In this document: positions 27,976 through 36,425 of the stretch, in pieces
How the letters are laid out: each line of letters starts with the position of its first letter
How positions within the stretch are numbered: position 1 is the stretch's first letter
Assembly: GCA_021736385.1 (NCBI GenBank)
Contig: JAIPFY010000008.1
Span: 188 to 64,187 of the forward strand
DNA from: Spirochaetia bacterium
GTDB lineage: Bacteria; Spirochaetota; Spirochaetia; CAKZLE01
Direction: 5' to 3'
DNA: 64,000 nucleotides
Program-made: the position numbers and the translations under genes
The notes under the pieces: generated by a model
The model's database searches: none
Told to the model about the DNA's origin: nothing
What the model saw: only the letters and a program-made list of their open reading frames with translations

Positions 27976-28148
27976 CCCACGGCTGAGCTCAGCAGGAAGC
28001 GATGCTGATCATCCCTGCAATCTCAGAAGTGATTCTTGTCTCATGAGCCATCCTGGTGTACTATCTACAGCAGCAGGTATCTATCCTGCAGGCAGAGCAC
28101 ACACGATGTCCCTGCCATCCTATACTACCCTGCAGGAGGTATCAGATC

Positions 28149-28937
28149 ATGCAGAGACCGGATGAACTCGTATTCGAAGGCCAGACTCTCAGGGGGATGG
28201 TCCATTACCCTGATTCAGCAGAGGGGCCTGTCCCCTCTGTGATCATATTCCATGGATTCACCGGCAGCAAAGTCGATGCTCACCGTATCCATGTGCACAT
28301 AGCCCGGTATCTTGAAGAACGCGGGATCGCTGTCTACCGGTATGACTTCATCGGCTCGGGTGAGAGCGACGGGGAGTTCGAACAGATGACGCTCAGCAGC
28401 GAGATCGCACAGGCGCATGCCGTGTTCGCACATGTCTGTGAAGACCCACGCTGCGATCCATCACAGGTGTTCGTCATCGGACACAGTATGGGAGGTCTTG
28501 TGACCGGATGCTTTGCAGGAGATACGGCATCAGAGCCCTCACTGCAGCAGCCTGCAGGACTCATCCTCATGGCACCGGCGGGGAATATGATCGAAGTCTA
28601 CGAGGAGGTCTGCAGGATCTCAAAAGACTGGATCAGAGCTGACGGCTCAGTGGATCATGAAGGGTATGTGGTAGGAAGCGGGTACCTGAAAGACCTTACC
28701 GGTCATATCGCATCACTGCCCGAGCGTGCAGCAGCCTATATGAACGATGTCCTGGTGATCCATGGGGATCAGGATACGGTCGTAGGCCTCTCAGTCGGGC
28801 AGACCTTCGCAGGCTACTATCAGGAACGGGGAACGGTCGCGATCATCGAAGGAGCAGACCACTGCTTCTCACAGATCCCCTATGAACAGCAGCTGCTCGA
28901 ACAGATCGGCTCCTTTGTCACACAGCACCTTCAATAG
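28149..28937 (+). CDS. alpha/beta hydrolase (feruloyl/cinnamoyl esterase-like)
   Basis: HGFTG, GSGESDG, nucleophile GHSMGG, HGDQD, GADH triad; start reset behind AGGAGGT. Confidence 0.9.
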   Translation: MQRPDELVFEGQTLRGMVHYPDSAEGPVPSVIIFHGFTGSKVDAHRIHVHIARYLEERGIAVYRYDFIGSGESDGEFEQMTLSSEIAQAHAVFAHVCEDPRCDPSQVFVIGHSMGGLVTGCFAGDTASEPSLQQPAGLILMAPAGNMIEVYEEVCRISKDWIRADGSVDHEGYVVGSGYLKDLTGHIASLPERAAAYMNDVLVIHGDQDTVVGLSVGQTFAGYYQERGTVAIIEGADHCFSQIPYEQQLLEQIGSFVTQHLQ

Positions 28938-29989
28938 ATGCGCAGCTGAGAGAGTCCCAGTTCAAGCCTGTTGCGATCAATGACTTCGTTCCAGGTATGA
29001 TACCCTTGCGGGGGTTCATAGCTGCAGCTGCTTACCTCATACCGACCAGCATGCCCGGTCATATGAGCCATGAGATCGGTCGCAGCTGCCTTCACCCCGT
29101 CATCTGTGGCTCTTGAGCCCGCATAGAAGTCGTTTCCCGGCCATGATACATGATCCCAGGCTACTATCGAGAAGAGCCGGTGATCACAGAAGTCATCTCC
29201 GGGTTCCTCATACGCTGTGACCCGGCACAGCTGAGCATGAGGAGCGGCCGCTCTTCTGAGCGGCCTGACCCTCAGTTCGGTCTCTCCTGCGTGGAAGGTC
29301 TCCTCCCTGCACTCCTGATAGGGATCGTAGTAGATGATCCTGATCGATGGGAACAGGGAATGATGGGTTCTGATCAGTTCGGCGAGCACCTGTTCCAGAA
29401 GGGCTCCGAGTCTACCGTAGAACGGCCCGGCGAACTGGCCGCAGCCGATCCCGGGAACAGTCACCACAGCCTGCTGAGCATGCGCACTGCAGATGGTCTC
29501 CACATGCTGCAGCAGCGGCAGCAGGCGTCGTTCATAGAGCCGGTAGTACTGCTCATAGCAAATCTGTGCATCGGAAGTCACCTCCTCCCAGTCACAGGGA
29601 GTCACCCCACAGGGGGCTGCAAGGAGGGCCCCCGGGATGAAGAGCAGCTCTGCAGAGAACGGCAGGGTATGGACACGCGGGTTCCGATGAGCCCCGTCGT
29701 CATAGACGCGAACCGGGACCGCGACAGCCAGGTCTCCCAGGATCGATAGCTCCTGCATGTTCCAGTCAGACCCGTCTGCATGCAGTGCCGACTCAGCGAA
29801 GATCTGAGGCTTCTTGGTAGTGATGAGCTGCTGGAGGAACTGCCAGTCTGAAAGTGAGGACAGATCAAGACCGGCAAGCCGCCGGTGCAGATAGGCTCCC
29901 ATCGTGCACGTACCTGCTGCCAGGGCCTCCCGGTACCAGGCTACCTTCGCAAACCCATCATGATGCATCAACACAGTACCATCAGTCAT
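28931..29989 (-). CDS. MavL-like macrodomain (ADP-ribosyl)hydrolase homolog
   Basis: KKPQIFAES, DGSDWN, SILGD, PGALL, LYERRLLP, PGIGCGQFAG, YDPY, SIVAWDHVSWPGNDF...R.TDDGVKAA match Legionella MavL motifs as recalled; start reset to MTDG. Confidence 0.75.
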   Translation of the reverse strand: MTDGTVLMHHDGFAKVAWYREALAAGTCTMGAYLHRRLAGLDLSSLSDWQFLQQLITTKKPQIFAESALHADGSDWNMQELSILGDLAVAVPVRVYDDGAHRNPRVHTLPFSAELLFIPGALLAAPCGVTPCDWEEVTSDAQICYEQYYRLYERRLLPLLQHVETICSAHAQQAVVTVPGIGCGQFAGPFYGRLGALLEQVLAELIRTHHSLFPSIRIIYYDPYQECREETFHAGETELRVRPLRRAAAPHAQLCRVTAYEEPGDDFCDHRLFSIVAWDHVSWPGNDFYAGSRATDDGVKAAATDLMAHMTGHAGRYEVSSCSYEPPQGYHTWNEVIDRNRLELGLSQLRIY

Positions 29990-30011
29990 ACGAGCCACCC
30001 CCTGCTGCTGT

Positions 30012-30040
30012 ATGATACCCACAGCTCACCCGCACATCAA
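30012..30040 (-). promoter_or_regulatory. sigma70-type promoter for the MavL-like gene
   Basis: Minus strand TTGATG (30040-30035), 17 bp, TATCAT (30017-30012). Confidence 0.55.
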
Positions 30041-30066
30041 GAGGGATCGTACTAACAGAAGCAGGG

Positions 30067-30945
30067 TCAGTGGCTTCCAAGCCTCCGGTAGAGATCGGCA
30101 TAGATGGCATCCCTGTCGAGATGATAGACCCAGCGGCAGAGCTTCCGTCTGGGGTCCTGGATGTAAGACCCATCCTCTGCGATCCGAGGGGTCGCTGTCG
30201 AGTAACTCTGTAGAGCATCAGGCAGGACCAGAGCCGCTACGGCTGCGACATCCCAGATCTCCTTGGTCCCCATCCCTTCGGGCAGGTATTCAGAGAACCT
30301 CTGGTAGAGAAAGGAGCATAACGGATCACTGGTATCCATATAGGCAGAGAGCTCTTCCCTGCTGGAAGTGAGATGGGAAGAGACCCCCATGCAGGGGACT
30401 ACCGTCAGGGGGATCCCGGAATCATAGACCACCTTCACAGCAGCGATATCACCCTGCAGATTGAACTCCCGGTTATCAGGCCAGTGCAGATCATTACCAC
30501 CGAGCCAGATGACCCTGCAGCGGTTCACCACCTCAGGTTCGATCAGGATCGCAGAGGCGATGTTGGTAAGTGCCCCGATCGCGATGATCTGCAGGGGGTC
30601 TTCTGCTGAAGCAGAGACAGACCTGCGGATCAGATCCTCCACAGCATCACTGCGCTCAGCATCCCCCGTATCGGTGAGGAACTCACTCGATCCGGCATAG
30701 CTGGGAATATCATCCCGGCCAAGACGATCGAGCAGTCTGCCGATCTCCTCATGACTCTTGCGCATCCCCTCGCCTGCAGAGGCTGCCCGGTCATTCCTGA
30801 ACGGTGCGGCATAGATCGCTTCGGTCTTCACCACATCCTCGGCCCTGAGCAGATACGCAAGGGCGAACTGATCATCTATCTCATTGAAGGTATCGGTATC
30901 AAGTACGGCCCTCGGCCGTACATCACTCTTCTGATGCTCTCTCAT
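30067..30945 (-). CDS. nucleoside hydrolase (IUNH family)
   Basis: LDTDTFNEIDD Asp cluster, IGALTNIA, WLGG, EFNL..D, WDV. Confidence 0.88.
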   Translation of the reverse strand: MREHQKSDVRPRAVLDTDTFNEIDDQFALAYLLRAEDVVKTEAIYAAPFRNDRAASAGEGMRKSHEEIGRLLDRLGRDDIPSYAGSSEFLTDTGDAERSDAVEDLIRRSVSASAEDPLQIIAIGALTNIASAILIEPEVVNRCRVIWLGGNDLHWPDNREFNLQGDIAAVKVVYDSGIPLTVVPCMGVSSHLTSSREELSAYMDTSDPLCSFLYQRFSEYLPEGMGTKEIWDVAAVAALVLPDALQSYSTATPRIAEDGSYIQDPRRKLCRWVYHLDRDAIYADLYRRLGSH

Positions 30946-30987
30946 AACACGCTCCTTGTGTGTACATGTATTCGTGACTTCCGACGA

Positions 30988-31833
30988 TCAGCCCTTGATG
31001 GCAGACCCGGCCACACTGGCAACATAGTATTTCTGCAGCGGCATCAGTATGATCAGAGGAATGAAGCACAGCAGACTCGCTGCTGCCAGCTTCAGCCCCC
31101 AGAGCGTACCGTACTGCTGCGTGAAGGTCGATAATGCTATCTGGATCATACCGTTCTCGATAGAACGCGATACGACCAGAGGCCAAAGAAAGGACTCCCA
31201 CTGCCCGAGAAAGAGGATCAGAGAAGCTCCGATCATAGTCGGGATCGTGAGAGGGAAGTAGATCTTCAGCAGAACCTGCAGACTGGTAGCACCATCGATG
31301 GTGGCAGCCTCGAGCAGAGCTTTGGGTATCTGGTTGAAGAACTGGATGAACATGAAGATCACCATACCATTGCCGAGCATCGGCAGGATCAGGGCGATCC
31401 TCGTATCGATGAGACCGAGTGAATCGACCAGATTATAGGTCGGGATCACCAGCAGGTCCGCATGCATGAGAAACGATGCAAGCACGATGGCGAACAGGAT
31501 GTTCTTACCATAGAACTGCAGGGCAGAGAAGGCGAACCCCGCCAGGGCATTGATGATCACCCCTGCCACTACAGTGATCATACAGACGAACAGCGTATTG
31601 ACCAGGGCATGGGAGAAGACATCATTGGTGAACACACCGATGAAGTTCGCCATGGTGAAGGGGACAGGACTCAGAGCCTTGAAGGAGAGAGGCGCGAGCC
31701 CCTGAAAGATCAGGTTCTCAGGTCTGAAGGATGCCATCAGCGACCACACGATCGGCATGACGAAGATGAACCCGAAGGTCAGTGACAGAAGGTGATAGAT
31801 ACTCAGCTGCAGATAGTTCTTTCTGGATCTCAT
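30988..31833 (-). CDS. carbohydrate ABC permease (MalG-type)
   Basis: EAA motif IPKALLEAATIDGA; WESFLWP. Confidence 0.93.
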   Translation of the reverse strand: MRSRKNYLQLSIYHLLSLTFGFIFVMPIVWSLMASFRPENLIFQGLAPLSFKALSPVPFTMANFIGVFTNDVFSHALVNTLFVCMITVVAGVIINALAGFAFSALQFYGKNILFAIVLASFLMHADLLVIPTYNLVDSLGLIDTRIALILPMLGNGMVIFMFIQFFNQIPKALLEAATIDGATSLQVLLKIYFPLTIPTMIGASLILFLGQWESFLWPLVVSRSIENGMIQIALSTFTQQYGTLWGLKLAAASLLCFIPLIILMPLQKYYVASVAGSAIKG

Positions 31834-31834
31834 A

Positions 31835-32707
31835 TCACTCCCTCTCCCCGAACGTCTTGAACTGGATGGCGATGATGCCGATGAGCATGAACATCAGAAA
31901 GACGATCATCGCCATCCCGTGCCCCACATCTCCCTGGAGCATGGCTGTCTTGTACGCCTCATGCATCAGCACGTTGGTGGAAGAATCAGGACCGCCCTTG
32001 GTGATCATGAAGACCGGGATGAAGAGCATGAAGTTGGCAGCTGTATCGGTCACGAAGATGAACAGCAGCGTCCTGAACAACAGGGGCAAGGTGATGTGAA
32101 AGAAGGCGGGGATCGTCCCTACCCCTTCCACCTGACAGGCCTCATAGATCTCTTTCGGAATGTTCTTCAATCCTGCCAGGACGAAGAGCATCCAGAAGGA
32201 ACACCCTTTCCAGGAGGCTATGATGATGATGATCCACAGCGCCTGGGTGGGAGAGTTGAAGAACGGCTGCATCGGCAGACCGAAGGCATTCAGGAGATAG
32301 TTCATGATCCCGTTACCCGGCCTGAAGATGATGCTCCAGTAGATGGTGGTGACCGCGAGAGAGACCCCAAGAGGGATGAAGAAGAGGAATCGGTAGAACA
32401 TCTTCCCCTTGTAGTCAAGATTGATCAGCAGGGCCATAACGACCGCGATCGCCACCTGGATCGGATTGATCAGAAGATTCAGTTTGGTGGTGACCCAGAC
32501 TGAATTCCAGAACGATCGATCAAGAAAAAGATCGATATAGTTGTTGATACCCACAAAGACCTTCGTACCGCTGAGATAACTCACCTTGAAGAAGCTTTCC
32601 CCGATGACGATGATGATCGGATAGAGCTTGAAGATCAGGATCAGGCCGACAGCCGGCAGCAGGAACATATACGCTTTTACCGTCTCTTTCTTGTGTCGAT
32701 CTACCAT
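31835..32707 (-). CDS. carbohydrate ABC permease (MalF-type)
   Basis: LAGLKNIP.EIYEA..VEG; TKGGP. Confidence 0.93.
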   Translation of the reverse strand: MVDRHKKETVKAYMFLLPAVGLILIFKLYPIIIVIGESFFKVSYLSGTKVFVGINNYIDLFLDRSFWNSVWVTTKLNLLINPIQVAIAVVMALLINLDYKGKMFYRFLFFIPLGVSLAVTTIYWSIIFRPGNGIMNYLLNAFGLPMQPFFNSPTQALWIIIIIASWKGCSFWMLFVLAGLKNIPKEIYEACQVEGVGTIPAFFHITLPLLFRTLLFIFVTDTAANFMLFIPVFMITKGGPDSSTNVLMHEAYKTAMLQGDVGHGMAMIVFLMFMLIGIIAIQFKTFGERE

Positions 32708-32711
32708 ATGA

Positions 32712-34094
32712 TTATCGCACCCTTGAAATATTCTTTTCGATCTCTGCTACCGCTTCACTCAACGCCCTCTGAGGGTCAACGCCCTGAGCTGCATCTGTGA
32801 AAGCCTTATCGAACCCTGTATTCACGAAGGGATAGAACGGGGTGACCGGTCGACCTTCTGCTGTATTGAGCACCTGGTAGACACCAAGTCGCTGTGCACT
32901 GAGCGGGAACCTGTCGTATTTCGGATTCGTAGAGAGCTGGTCGAGCATGTACTTGGTAGCCGGCAACTCACCATTGGCGTCATACCAGAGCTGAGAGCCC
33001 TCCTCGGTAAGGGTCCACCACTGGAGGAAATCAGCAGCAAGCTGTTTGTTCTTCTCAGGAGCACTCTTGGCGATCCCGGTGACCCAGGAGCCGGTAGGTG
33101 TGGTCGGGTTGCCATCTGCAAAATAGGGATGGGCAGCTACTACCACATCGAGACCTGATTCAGTGAGCCTCTTGAGATTCCAGCCGCCGCCGACCATCAT
33201 CGCATAGGAGCCATTGACGAACTCAGCAGGGGCATCATAGCCGGGGAGGAAGCCGCTGGGTACTTCCACCTTGTAGGTGTTGAACAGATCACCATAGAAG
33301 GTGACAGCCTTCAGCCATACCGGCTGATCGAAGTAGCCTTTCACCGTCGTCCCGTCAGGAGAGACGATCTTTCCGCCCCGAGACCCGCCAAGGGGCTGGA
33401 GCTGATAGAGACGTCCGGCCTGTTCGATATGAAGACCGTGTACATCGATGATACCATCCCCATCGATATCTCTGGTCATCTTGACCGCTGCATCGACGAC
33501 CTCTTCCCAGGTCCATGCGGCAGCTCCCCATTTCTCTGCGAAATCGCCGGTGATCATGGTATCCTTGTCGACCACCACCGGCGGCAAGGTGATCCCTGCC
33601 TCTTCTGCCATCGCGGCGTTGATGTAAAGATACTGATCGGAGTTCTGCATGGGAGAGGCCATGATACGACCATTGTAGGTCACATCCGCAAGTGATTTCT
33701 CTGCGATCATCTGCGTGAAGGTCTCTTTGGGAATATACTTCGTCAGATCGTCGATAAAGCCCCTGTCGGCGTAGTTGGCCATCAGTGGGATGTCCATGAC
33801 AACCAAGTCAATATTGGGTGTATCAGCACTGAAGCGTACCTCCAGATTCTGGAAGTAGGTATCCCAGGGGTACTCCTCCACGGTGATCTCGATACCCGGA
33901 TGTGCTGCCATATAGGCATCAGCCATGATCTTCACCCTGTTCTCGTCATTCTGGAACTGATAGGCGAATACATTGATCTTCTGTGCCGTTTCCTGTGAAT
34001 CTGATTCTGCCTGTCCGCCTGCTGTCAGCGGGAATACCAGACATAAGAGCATGACGATCGCCATACATGTGCGACCGGTCGTAGTGTGTTTCAT
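32712..34094 (-). CDS. carbohydrate ABC substrate-binding protein (SBP_bac_1/8)
   Basis: Signal peptide AGGQAE, WTWEE, DIDGDG loop; first gene of the permease string. Confidence 0.9.
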   Translation of the reverse strand: MKHTTTGRTCMAIVMLLCLVFPLTAGGQAESDSQETAQKINVFAYQFQNDENRVKIMADAYMAAHPGIEITVEEYPWDTYFQNLEVRFSADTPNIDLVVMDIPLMANYADRGFIDDLTKYIPKETFTQMIAEKSLADVTYNGRIMASPMQNSDQYLYINAAMAEEAGITLPPVVVDKDTMITGDFAEKWGAAAWTWEEVVDAAVKMTRDIDGDGIIDVHGLHIEQAGRLYQLQPLGGSRGGKIVSPDGTTVKGYFDQPVWLKAVTFYGDLFNTYKVEVPSGFLPGYDAPAEFVNGSYAMMVGGGWNLKRLTESGLDVVVAAHPYFADGNPTTPTGSWVTGIAKSAPEKNKQLAADFLQWWTLTEEGSQLWYDANGELPATKYMLDQLSTNPKYDRFPLSAQRLGVYQVLNTAEGRPVTPFYPFVNTGFDKAFTDAAQGVDPQRALSEAVAEIEKNISRVR

Positions 34095-34218
34095 ACATTA
34101 CCTCCTTATAAAACCACATGAGATGATACTAGTATGGAACGTGGCGGCACGATAGGGACCAACGTACTATGATTGGTACCAGAAAGGTACCATATGCTTC
34201 GGTGACCAGCAAAATACC

Positions 34219-34920
34219 TTATCGATACTCTGCGATATGGTCTTCCATGTACTTCAGTACCAGCTGCGACCGCTTATGTACTGCCATCTTACCGTAGATG
34301 TTCGTCAGATAGTTCTTCACCGTCTGTTCGGCAAGATTCAGCAGTGATGCGATCTCCTTGTTACTCAAGCCCTGTACCACCTGCTCAAGGATCTCCTTCT
34401 CGAGACGGGTCAGCGCGATGAACCAGGCAGGCAGGGCTGCCGTCCTCACCGTACCTGATGTGATCAGCGGGCTGTCTGCCGGCAGCCGCAGCTTCTCGGT
34501 GAGTCTGGTGATGATCGACGGGGAGATCTGGTTGATCCCGGCATACAAGGCCCTGATCGCTGTGATGACCTCTTCAGGGAGGATCGTCTTGAGCAGATAC
34601 CCCTTGGCCCCGTACTGCAGGGCCTCGACCACATAGGCATCCTCATCGAAGGTGGTCAGCATCATGATCCTGATCTGCGGATCGATCGTAGTGATCCGTC
34701 TTGTCGCTTCCACCCCGTTCATGATCGGCATCTTGATGTCCATGATGATGATGTCGATCTCCTGACGCTCTACTGCCGCCACAGCATCCCTGCCGTCACT
34801 CTCGATGCCTATGATCTCGATATCATCAGCTCGGTGCTGTATGACCTGAGCCAGGCTGTGGACGAACAGCGGCTGGTCATCGACCAGCAATACTTTGATC
34901 TTGGTCTTCTCTGTGTTCAT
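34219..34920 (-). CDS. NarL/LuxR-type response regulator
   Basis: LVDDQ, MDIKMP, LTTFD, GYLLK; GLSNKEIA...TVKNY HTH; start reset to MNTEK. Confidence 0.93.
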   Translation of the reverse strand: MNTEKTKIKVLLVDDQPLFVHSLAQVIQHRADDIEIIGIESDGRDAVAAVERQEIDIIIMDIKMPIMNGVEATRRITTIDPQIRIMMLTTFDEDAYVVEALQYGAKGYLLKTILPEEVITAIRALYAGINQISPSIITRLTEKLRLPADSPLITSGTVRTAALPAWFIALTRLEKEILEQVVQGLSNKEIASLLNLAEQTVKNYLTNIYGKMAVHKRSQLVLKYMEDHIAEYR

Positions 34921-36184
34921 ACGTGTTCCTTTTCTGTGTACGAGCCATCGGCAGCCTGGCGATGAGGGTGAACCCCGCATGTGAAGAGCTGTAGCTGATC
35001 ACCCCGCCCTGCTGCTCGATCCGTTCTGTCATTCCTTTGAGGCCGATCCCCTCTACCACCGAAGCACTGCCGATCCCGTTATCTTCGAACGTGATCACCA
35101 GATGTTCTCGCTCCTGAAAGAAGATGATGACCACATGTGTCGCCTTACCATGTCTGAATGAGTTCGTCAGCCCCTCCTGCAGGAATCGCAGGATGAAATT
35201 GTCATAGGTGCTGCTCCCTGAGATACTGAAGTTCGTGAACTCGAGATGGATATCCATACCAGTCACATGCATGAAGTTATGTACGATCTTGTAGATACGA
35301 CTGGTCAGGGGCATCGTCACCTCCTGAATATCACGGAGCTGTTTCAGGACCTGCCGTATCTCATGGTGTCCGCCCCGGGCCTGCATCCTGGCGCTGCCGA
35401 GCAGTTCGAGCAGCTCCTGATCCTTCTTTCCCAGCAGCAGGTCCTCCCCGTGCTCGAGCATCATGATGATGCTCGTCAGCGTATACCCCGTGATATCGTG
35501 GATCTCACGGGTGATACTCAGCCGCTCTTCGATCCTCGACTCGTTCTCGATGGTGAACGCATACTTCTGAAAGCCCAGGTTCGTATCGATCAGATTGTTG
35601 ATGGAGATCTCTTTGAGCTGCAGATCCTTCTTCTGGCGGGCCAGCACTGTGAGGATATACTGCTGCAGATGACAGATCACCATGACAGCGCATTCACTGA
35701 TGAGCAGGAATCCGGTCTCCGCTGCTGAGAGTCCATGGAAGGTGAACCCGAACACCACCGCATTGGACTGGATAGGTATCAGGATCCCGAAGACAGCCAG
35801 TGATACCGGTATACTCGCCTTGAAGGGAAGTTTCACCGCGTACTGATAGAACAGGGCGGTAACGATCCAGAAGCGCAGACCGATCGCATTCACATGCAGC
35901 CCTGTGATGAGCATGACCAGCAGAGAGTTGATGATGAAGATGATAAAGACCGAGATGGGGTGGACGATGAGCAGGAAGGCCATACTGAAGATACCACTCA
36001 CCAGCGTGAGGATCACCAGCTGAAAACGGATGTTCTCCACCGAGTAGACGGTGTTCTCAAGATCGGTAGCAAGGTAGAGCCCGAGAAAGAGGTACAGGAG
36101 TACCACTACCAGATAGTTGACCCACGAGATGTTCCTGTCTATCAGATGAGACCCTATACTGTTCACCAGCGATTTCCGCTTCAT
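34877..36184 (-). CDS. membrane sensor histidine kinase (HisKA_3, NarX/DesK-like)
   Basis: Multiple TMs, ERLSITREIHD, QEGLTNSFRHG, DNGIG, GIGLKGM; start reset to MKRKS. Confidence 0.9.
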   Translation of the reverse strand: MKRKSLVNSIGSHLIDRNISWVNYLVVVLLYLFLGLYLATDLENTVYSVENIRFQLVILTLVSGIFSMAFLLIVHPISVFIIFIINSLLVMLITGLHVNAIGLRFWIVTALFYQYAVKLPFKASIPVSLAVFGILIPIQSNAVVFGFTFHGLSAAETGFLLISECAVMVICHLQQYILTVLARQKKDLQLKEISINNLIDTNLGFQKYAFTIENESRIEERLSITREIHDITGYTLTSIIMMLEHGEDLLLGKKDQELLELLGSARMQARGGHHEIRQVLKQLRDIQEVTMPLTSRIYKIVHNFMHVTGMDIHLEFTNFSISGSSTYDNFILRFLQEGLTNSFRHGKATHVVIIFFQEREHLVITFEDNGIGSASVVEGIGLKGMTERIEQQGGVISYSSSHAGFTLIARLPMARTQKRNTYEHREDQDQSIAGR

Positions 36185-36425
36185 GTATGAACAATACCAC
36201 AGTATCGTAAAAAGTACAGAGCAGATCCTGCAGCTTGATTGATGAATCAGCAGGGAGCAGGACCATCTCAGATCAGGGACCGCTGTCCCCTCTGGCCGGA
36301 GACAGTCAGCGATCGGACCCGCGGTAACCAATGATACAGACAGGTGCTGCACTCCTCTGGTATACTGTAGAGACACACCTTCAGGTGAAGCTGCTGTCGA
36401 ACATCGTTCACGCTAAGGAGTCATC

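Follow-up and report, generated by a model that had tools for sequence, protein, structure and literature searches.

A stand-alone MavL-family macrodomain gene in a Spirochaetia bacterium, a candidate eraser of arginine ADP-ribosylation

The MavL-like gene, its family and its fold

The 64,000-nucleotide stretch analysed here (hereafter designated the window; positions 188 to 64,187 of contig JAIPFY010000008.1, forward strand, in assembly GCA_021736385.1 of a Spirochaetia bacterium) carries on its minus strand a gene for a 352-residue protein related to the macrodomain effector MavL (Lpg2526) of Legionella pneumophila. Ahead of it on that strand come, in this order, genes for a histidine kinase, a LuxR-type regulator, a solute-binding protein, two permeases and, separated from the MavL-like gene by a gap of 77 nucleotides, an IU-type nucleoside hydrolase (E 1e-22). 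The coding sequence of the MavL-like gene (28934..29989, minus strand, from an ATG at 29989 to the stop codon TGA at 28931-28933) was found where the original prediction, made from the sequence alone, had placed a 352-residue open reading frame (ORF). The ORF listing also gives a longer minus-strand frame of 363 residues (28931-30022) that begins with GTG. The ATG is the likelier start, because the sequence AGGGGG lies 8 nucleotides upstream of it (29998-30003), because the alignments with homologues begin at query residues 1-6, and because the GTG falls within the spacer of a promoter-like site.

In Pfam, the protein matched PF24754 (Macrodomain effector MavL) over profile positions 3-325 of 325, with an E value of 2e-121 and 405.3 bits against a cut-off of 27, and a phmmer search of Protein Data Bank (PDB) sequences returned solely MavL chains (8IPW, 8XEP, 8DMP, 6OMI, 8DMR and 8IPJ; E about 1e-68, query residues 7-330). 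An AlphaFold model was built on an 80-row alignment consisting of the window protein, 78 of the 120 database matches listed and the protein of a genome from the same family (G004); the self-cluster P0002, rows with extra domains and, without a set criterion, some others were left out. The model reached a predicted local distance difference test score (pLDDT) of 92.5 and a predicted template modelling score of 0.92, and Foldseek overlaid it on eight MavL entries (including 8DMP, 8DMR, 8XEP and 8IPW) with template modelling (TM) scores of 0.92-0.93, root-mean-square deviations of 1.8-2.1 Å and 36% identity, compared with TM scores of 0.61-0.63 for Drosophila CG2909 and CG3568 and 0.47-0.48 for Larg1. 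The kinship with MavL stated in the original prediction was thus recovered in both profile and fold. The Pfam family named in that connection, DUF4804 (PF16062), gave no match at E<=1, a level at which PF24754 was the only Pfam family; some homologues match both PF24754 and PF16062 in precomputed lists, so that the two models are related. NCBIfam returned no match for the protein. Collectively, its sequence and model identify it as a genuine macrodomain of the MavL family that retains the complete catalytic machinery.

The protein was found to have no signal peptide or membrane helix: its N-terminus belongs to the domain and is modelled with confidence (pLDDT 89-97), and its sole hydrophobic 19-mer (Kyte-Doolittle score 1.63, residue 111) is a modelled beta-strand. 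The chain ends 22 residues beyond the position aligned to MavL 366. These features bear out the description in the original prediction of a cytoplasmic protein that lacks a signal peptide and stops soon after its single domain.

Active site and predicted reaction

Two signature motifs of this macrodomain class, [V/I/L]xGxGxGx[F/W/Y] and WDxx[S/A]xPGN[D/E][F/Y][F/W/Y], are described in PMC10951314, whose residue numbering coincides with that of 8XEP_A (G221...F227), the basis of the correspondences used here. The blocks of the window protein that align to the motifs and to the substrate contacts of MavL are as follows.

29789..29815, minus strand: KKPQIFAES, residues 59-67, aligned to the arginine-positioning loop of MavL; F64 and E66 correspond to F105 and E107
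29678..29695, minus strand: GAHRNP, residues 99-104; H101 corresponds to MavL H142 (adenine stacking)
29432..29458, minus strand: putative di-phosphate-binding loop VPGIGCGQF, residues 178-186, aligned to MavL 219-227 and fitting the first signature motif
29318-29329, minus strand: YDPY; Y224 corresponds to MavL Y265 (adenine stacking)
29123..29158, minus strand: putative catalytic loop WDHVSWPGNDFY, residues 278-289, fitting the second signature motif
29096..29107, minus strand: TDDG, residues 295-298; T295, D296 and D297 correspond to MavL T331, D332 and D333

In MavL, activity is lost strongly in the F227A, D315A, D323A and D333A variants and less so in N322A and T331A, the adenine stacks between H142 and Y265, and the arginine is positioned by F105, E107, D323 and T331 (PMC10951314). 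In the alignment, F227 corresponds to F186, and D315, N322 and D323 correspond to D279, N286 and D287, respectively; all the residues whose importance in MavL has been demonstrated by mutagenesis are identical in the window protein. Indeed, the catalytic residues that the original prediction had singled out agree with D315, N322, D323 and D333 of PMC10951314, that is, with D279, N286, D287 and D297 here. Moreover, the 80-row alignment contains 58 invariant columns, which cover all the named active-site residues but F64 and Y224, each of these two being kept in at least 90% of the sequences. The invariant positions include E66, H101, G180, G182, C183, G184, F186, the entire catalytic loop with D279, N286 and D287, and T295, D296 and D297.

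All the sequence blocks quoted in the original prediction were located, including PGIGCGQF (within residues 178-186), DGSDWN, PGALL, YDPY and the long block SIVAWDH...AAATD, which spans residues 274-305 (window 29075-29170). The upstream blocks match MavL as claimed (KKPQIFAES at 8 of 9 positions, and LYERRLLP, PGALL and YDPY in full). The long block, which had been called near-identical to that of MavL, does resemble it, but with 25 of 32 residues identical by hand count, the wording was slightly generous.

We consider it well supported by homology, and probable, that the protein is a macrodomain enzyme of the cytoplasm that cleaves the N-glycosidic bond linking ADP-ribose to arginine, using the substrate-assisted mechanism proposed for MavL. 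In such a reaction, ADP-ribose would bind with its adenine stacked between H101 and Y224, its di-phosphate resting on the G180-F186 loop and its distal ribose held by D279, N286 and D297, with F186 blocking one face; the modified arginine would be positioned by F64, E66, D287 and T295, and water, activated by the phosphate of the substrate itself, would attack C1'', yielding free arginine and ADP-ribose. The predicted activity is the removal of single ADP-ribose units from arginine.

With regard to linkage specificity, section 10 of PMC10951314 reports that MavL, Larg1 and two fly proteins cleave only Arg-linked ADP-ribose in a panel of defined substrates, and these four, all from Legionella or Drosophila, are the class members that the paper presents as assayed so far. 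Larg1 (Lpg0081; 7W3S and 7WBK), described as an injected effector paired with the transferase Ceg3, is a distant member of the same Arg-specific class, with 11-12% identity to the window protein, extra helices and an expanded variable region (PMC10951314). The fly DUF4804 macrodomains CG2909 and CG3568 (8DMT and 8DMU) share the class, the motif pattern and Arg specificity in vitro (PMC10951314), but are larger proteins with a variable inserted region and only 12-13% identical to the window protein in structural alignments. Arg-only specificity appears to be class-wide. Since these four far-apart members are all Arg-only and the window protein is much closer to MavL, arginine specificity is a reasonable expectation for it, and we infer both activity and specificity by analogy. 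The same reaction is predicted as for the ARH/DraG family (DraG, ARH1 and Tri1), the members of which have an unrelated fold and a metal-dependent mechanism (PMC10951314).

The surrounding cassettes and the transcription unit

Three features adjoin the coding sequence.

30046..36310, minus strand: variable cassette (histidine kinase from codon 23, LuxR-type response regulator, solute-binding protein, two permeases and IU-type nucleoside hydrolase), delimited by Pfam, blastn, the junction sequence and contig X3
30012..30040, minus strand: promoter-like site TTGATG-17-TATCAT from a consensus scan, with the candidate ribosome-binding site AGGGGG at 29998-30003
28056..28937, plus strand: convergent alpha/beta-hydrolase gene (Pfam Hydrolase_4 and Abhydrolase), whose stop overlaps the MavL-like stop by 7 nucleotides

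The arrangement suggests that the MavL-like protein might be the last enzyme of the adjacent operon, breaking down an imported N-ribosyl or ADP-ribosyl compound. The gene follows the stop of the nucleoside-hydrolase gene by 77 nucleotides on the same strand, and no terminator-like site was predicted in the gap; sugar-type ATP-binding cassette (ABC) transporter clusters also contain each of the three ARH-family genes of the window genome (G000), and the stand-alone homologue in G004 follows a DeoR/sugar-binding-type regulator beside a tripartite ATP-independent periplasmic (TRAP) transporter and a sugar isomerase. However, this explanation was dropped because a near-identical strain without the cassette keeps both the gene and the promoter-like site. 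Thus, the MavL-like protein of two metagenome loci (L030 and L031) is 98.6% identical to that of the window, and blastn at about 98.5% identity aligned L030 collinearly with the window in two blocks (L030 4703-7801 with window 39413-36311, and L030 7945-9975 with window 30045-28014), between which the 6.3-kb cassette (window 30046-36310) is replaced in L030/L031 by 143 unrelated bases. At the junction, the kinase is reduced to its first 22 codons, whereas the MavL-like gene is intact with 56 nucleotides upstream of it kept. An independent DNA contig from another study (X3) shows the same junction, covering 28014-30045 with 21 differences before entering the same foreign sequence. The shared block, which ends at 30045, starts at the -35-like TTGATG of the promoter-like site, which itself lies within the 77-nucleotide gap; the consensus scan found 9 sites against 6.5 expected, which is weak alone. 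Furthermore, none of 21 other loci carries a nucleoside hydrolase, solute-binding protein, kinase or regulator homologous to that of the window. The gene as last member of an operon of kinase, regulator, CUT1-type ABC importer and nucleoside hydrolase was therefore rejected, the cassette being absent from L030/L031 and X3, and the operon explanation is very unlikely and close to refuted. The MavL-like gene is its own transcription unit, independent of the adjacent cassette.

Other segments of the window are likewise missing from L030 (16302-28013, 39414-46625 and 3759-15287), so that four multi-kb sugar-utilisation cassettes, each with its own regulator and transporter, are absent from the approximately 98.5% identical strain. 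This region is a hot spot for the gain or loss of cassettes, and the MavL-like and hydrolase gene pair (2 kb, 28014-30045) is a stable island between swappable cassettes. What joins these two genes is their joint retention between strains, and no functional link between them was shown. Two short RNA-library contigs were found on the whole stretch, one inside the MavL-like gene and the rest on the hydrolase gene; lack of coverage elsewhere carries no weight. The contig inside the MavL-like gene (X6, 298 nucleotides, at 29270-29568), which has the variants of the X3 strain, gives a weak hint of transcription in the cassette-less strain, although carry-over of DNA could also account for it.

By Pfam, the other window ORFs (23 + 34) form a mosaic of sugar-utilisation cassettes with ABC, TRAP-like and Tct transporters, kinases, GH116, rhamnosidase and many regulators. 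No secretion system or ADP-ribosyltransferase family was found among these 57 ORFs, in line with the earlier statement that the window holds neither a secretion system nor a partner transferase. A tblastn search with 10 window proteins against 21 foreign loci placed none of them beside a homologue, save for weak permease matches about 5 kb off in L003.

As to the cassette itself, nucleoside hydrolases usually have the metal-binding pattern DxDxxxDD, whereas the one encoded here (window 30067-30945; a modest 81 bits in Pfam) has the lengthened motif DTDTFNEIDD; its substrate may be no standard nucleoside.

Homologues, spirochaete fusions and the role of the enzyme

The original prediction implied that such a protein is rare outside Legionella, which proved not to be the case: a word-indexed search (8000 scored candidates) returned at least 1379 homologue clusters at E<=1e-10, and relatives occur in seven phyla. 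An exhaustive search of 1.84 billion 50%-cluster representatives gave 541 matches at E<=1e-3, 428 at E<=1e-10 and 208 at E<=1e-30. The best non-self match (P0003) is 88% identical, the others among the 120 matches listed are 48-56% identical and 325-537 residues long, and all the source-given names among these 120 are 'hypothetical protein'. In a pattern search of genome contigs, 21 of 37 matches encode relatives (45-53% identical) from Chloroflexota, Cyanobacteriota (Chamaesiphon), Bacteroidota (Aureispira), Verrucomicrobiota, Pseudomonadota, Calditrichota and Spirochaetota (Treponema), and also from Deltaproteobacteria-titled assemblies. Stand-alone homologues of about 350 residues are thus widespread in environmental bacteria, and the window protein is closer to hundreds of them (48-56%) than to MavL. 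As judged by these alignments, it is an ordinary member of a widespread, uncharacterised bacterial family, of which MavL is a divergent, extended form. A whole-genome profile search found PF24754 in a single copy in the window genome. Elsewhere, the family occurred in 2 of 60 other relatives sampled, in 5 of 400 further genomes from the class and in none of 14 control genomes.

Family, fold, motifs and presence in bacteria are already published and modelled in Pfam (bacterial members are mentioned in PMC10951314), and in this respect the finding alone is modest, the Pfam model already naming the protein. In the literature found on MavL macrodomains and DUF4804, there was no study of a non-Legionella bacterial member. 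What is new is that the stand-alone environmental form is the commonest of the family: MavL is familiar as a means by which Legionella edits the ubiquitin of its host; the usual family member is a cytoplasmic environmental protein of about 350 residues with the catalytic site intact and no visible partner transferase. Added to this are the independence of the gene from its apparent operon and a recurrent spirochaete fusion with an ARH3-like domain, often beside NrtR.

The fusions were encountered among the relatives of the window genome. Whereas G004 has a stand-alone gene, the other four of the five other carriers in the class (G043, G069, G180 and G385) have frames of 647-1003 residues combining an N-terminal ADP_ribosyl_GH domain (PF03747) with a C-terminal MavL domain; the same architecture is present in a Treponema-titled locus (L016), and the MavL domain of G180 is identical to that of L017. 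Five ARH3-like-MavL fusions were mapped.

L016:5438-7567: ARH3-like-MavL fusion in the Treponema-titled locus
L017:8450-11053: ARH3-like-MavL fusion
L026:8584-10710: ARH3-like-MavL fusion
L056:7490-9418: ARH3-like-MavL fusion
L058:1072-3207: ARH3-like-MavL fusion

PF03747 and PF24754 occur together in 39 of 66 longer homologues, the named ones being from Spirochaetaceae, Spirochaetales or Spirochaetia assemblies; others among the 66 are fused to ankyrin repeats or to DNA methylase, adenosine deaminase or helicase domains. ARH3, named poly(ADP-ribose) glycohydrolase ARH3 in the PDB, is the closest match to the ARH portion of the G043 fusion (E 1e-15, versus 2e-6 for DraG). In these spirochaetes, the ARH3-like domain is thus fused to the MavL-type domain and does not substitute for it.

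In a maximum-likelihood tree of 49 rows, the window protein grouped with P0003 (100/100), G004 came next (98/91) and then the G043/G069 fusions (86/93, not starred), all of them inside a clade of 19 rows (96/81), of which the other spirochaete fusion clade (99/99) is also part. The midpoint root served for drawing only; partial rows (L019, L021 and L051) and near-duplicates (L030, L034, L036, L046, L047 and L050) were left out, as were L031 and L040 at extraction. By this tree, the stand-alone and fused spirochaete forms are kin, while Legionella brunensis, Berkiella and ankyrin-fused members lie on deep, long branches.

The positions of these members bear on whether the window protein could be a secreted effector acting on the ubiquitin of a eukaryotic host, as MavL does. 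MavL (8DMP, 8DMQ, 8DMR, 8DMS, 8IPW, 8IPJ, 8XEP and 6OMI) has the same fold, motifs and catalytic, ribose, adenine and arginine contacts, and the likeness includes the F64/E66 loop, which in MavL touches R42 of ubiquitin. This loop is, however, conserved family-wide and hence not ubiquitin-specific. Moreover, the 36% identical window protein has the core only: the N-terminal ~45 and C-terminal ~70 residues of the Legionella Dot/Icm effector are absent (residue 7 corresponds to MavL 46), the window encodes no secretion system, the Legionellales members stand on separate deep branches, and the DNA of the stretch is present in runs labelled lake water and bioreactor metagenomes. Unlike the host-directed MavL, the protein belongs to a free-living spirochaete in which no R-S-E transferase of the four Pfam families searched was found and which has no ubiquitin to act on. 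A role as a secreted effector is thus extremely improbable.

The fusions point in another direction. ADP-ribose is the effector of NrtR. In three of five distinct fusion loci (L016, L017=G180 and G385, the last being L058), the same-strand gene directly upstream of the fusion encodes a member of this regulator family of NAD (nicotinamide adenine dinucleotide) synthesis (PMC2330246), with NUDIX and NrtR_WHD domains; in G180 and G385, it is the sole NrtR_WHD match of the genome. This raises the possibility of a housekeeping role in NAD and ADP-ribose homeostasis, in which the enzyme would clear ADP-ribosyl-arginine adducts and return ADP-ribose to salvage; such adducts would arise in an endogenous cycle, among the products of proteolysis or where free ADP-ribose attacks proteins non-enzymatically, and the stand-alone form would perform the same function without an ARH3-like partner. 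The frequency of the fusion among longer homologues and class carriers, the nearness of its ARH part to ARH3, by which the two domains would cover different linkages, and the grouping of the window protein with G004 and then with the G043/G069 fusions are all in its favour, as is the even identity of about 50% across phyla, which suits a universal substrate. Against it, no NrtR_WHD match was found in the genomes of the stand-alone carriers (G000 and G004), and the two genomes of one genus, G043 and G069, have their only match on a different contig or at a distance of 379 kb. The gene is also oddly rare for a housekeeping function, given its distribution in the class and the controls, no NAD-salvage gene adjoins it in any locus scanned, and no repair or salvage role is reported in the MavL/DUF4804 literature found. 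That MavL-type macrodomains are foremost enzymes of ADP-ribose and NAD homeostasis in free-living bacteria, with the spirochaete fusion a two-linkage eraser under the only NrtR of the genome, the Legionella effector a late recruit and the window gene the unfused form, is a tentative proposal that we think doubtful. If it were true, a widespread unrecognised cycle of arginine ADP-ribosylation or adduct repair would exist in bacteria without a known transferase. No mention of the spirochaete fusion beside NrtR was found in the literature on MavL, DUF4804 and NrtR, although the supplements of PMC10951314 may list bacterial homologues.

A further suggestion in the original prediction, an alternative to DraG, fared less well. 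A switch by which an Arg-ADP-ribosylated metabolic enzyme (nitrogenase reductase, for example) regains its activity would use the same chemistry as DraG, which removes ADP-ribose from protein arginine (Protein-R-ADPr) in the regulation of nitrogen fixation (PMC8120803). Nevertheless, the window genome, an assembly 94% complete, has no DraT match, and its Fer4_NifH matches are partial P-loop matches only (best E 1.9e-7 over 48 of 271 positions), of a model that has matches in all 14 control genomes. By Pfam, the window has no nitrogen-fixation genes either. The DraG alternative is therefore disfavoured and, like the secreted effector, exceedingly unlikely.

As to possible writers of the mark, the search for R-S-E transferases and draT envisaged in the original prediction gave no match in the window genome to ART (PF01129), ADPrib_exo_Tox (PF03496), DRAT (PF07357) or Enterotoxin_a (PF01375), a weak negative that covers four Pfam families and in which SidE-specific models were not searched. 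Five related carriers had no match to ADPrib_exo_Tox (PF03496), and Pfam found no transferase in 148 + 15 + 40 neighbouring ORFs of homologues (not counted in the set of 148 are 19 MavL ORFs, 8 that are small or distant and 2 that are long). The window genome has one ordinary SIR2 gene. Some homologues have conflict-type neighbours: in L015 a type I restriction-modification system containing Fic and Schlafen domains, in L014 Schlafen together with HipA, and in L021 an Imm5-like immunity protein. In addition, a DSP phosphatase of the polymorphic-toxin type ('Tc-R-P / PTP-SAK') is encoded next after the MavL-like gene at one metagenome locus (L045:6878-7423) and, in P0082 (537 residues), is fused to the MavL domain.

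Our best guess is that the protein is a soluble single-domain MavL-family enzyme, encoded in its own transcription unit, that acts as an 'orphan eraser' restoring the cell's own proteins after arginine ADP-ribosylation. We assign this reading as a whole a probability of roughly 0.55, on the grounds of the patchy distribution of the gene, its site between cassettes that can be swapped, the failure to find a cognate transferase, the conflict-type neighbours of some homologues and the precedent of Tri1, an ARH-type hydrolase that appears in a review as antitoxin against Tre1, an Arg-ADP-ribosylating toxin, and so shields bacteria from a transferase toxin (PMC8120803). The marks erased would come from toxins of competitors, from Alt/Mod-type phage enzymes or from an unrecognised endogenous transferase; the physiological substrate is a guess. 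If the enzyme is active, these bacteria carry an arginine-ADP-ribose eraser whose writer could be either a foreign toxin or phage enzyme, which would make it an orphan immunity function, or an endogenous source, and the spirochaete ARH3-like fusions beside NrtR offer a concrete, testable handle on this question.

Several points weigh against the orphan-eraser reading. The activity is predicted from homology, and the contacts of MavL with the proximal ribose, T224 and K236, are replaced in the window protein by C183, an invariant Cys in the environmental homologue set, and G195. The transferase negatives are weak, given four R-S-E-type families that also have zero matches in the control genomes and an incomplete assembly. 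At E<=0.01, no PADLOC model matched the MavL-like protein or either flanking gene, and PHROGs gave no match for the protein, hence no tie to a known defence system. The neighbours of the gene are not conserved, and most neighbours of its homologues are housekeeping genes by Pfam. The promoter call is a bare match to the consensus. Finally, an identity that stays at about 50% over seven phyla is, for a conflict gene, unusually uniform and better fits a conserved metabolic or universal substrate, and the ARH3-like fusions beside NrtR point to NAD and ADP-ribose homeostasis and not to toxin reversal.

Lineage-level synteny beside homologues was confined to two runs of genes. In Chloroflexota-type loci (L003, L005, L008, L012 and partly L002), an AIR-synthase-related protein, a DUF6909 protein (about 575 residues) and an M24 Xaa-Pro-type peptidase precede the MavL-like gene, which may be lineage synteny only, and in Chamaesiphon-type loci (L018, L020, L034 and L035), an APH-family phosphotransferase and a 176-residue ORF of no Pfam family precede it on the same strand.

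The ARH-family (PF03747) genes of the window genome, all three of which lie inside sugar ABC transporter clusters of the CUT1 type, are on contigs G000:C107 (L027:277-2433) and G000:C56 (L028:1285-3564 and L029:1187-2182). Two of the encoded proteins, of 718 and 759 residues, are 40% identical to each other and have a C-terminal half of about 400 residues without a Pfam family; hidden MavL-like domains in these halves were considered and rejected (BLASTP E > 3). The setting of these ARH-fold enzymes suggests the breakdown of imported glycosides rather than protein de-ADP-ribosylation. In two genomes of one spirochaete genus, a 1094-residue protein with WD40, PDZ and caspase (Peptidase_C14) domains is encoded two genes upstream of the ARH3-like-MavL fusion (L026:3998-7282 and L056:1921-5205).

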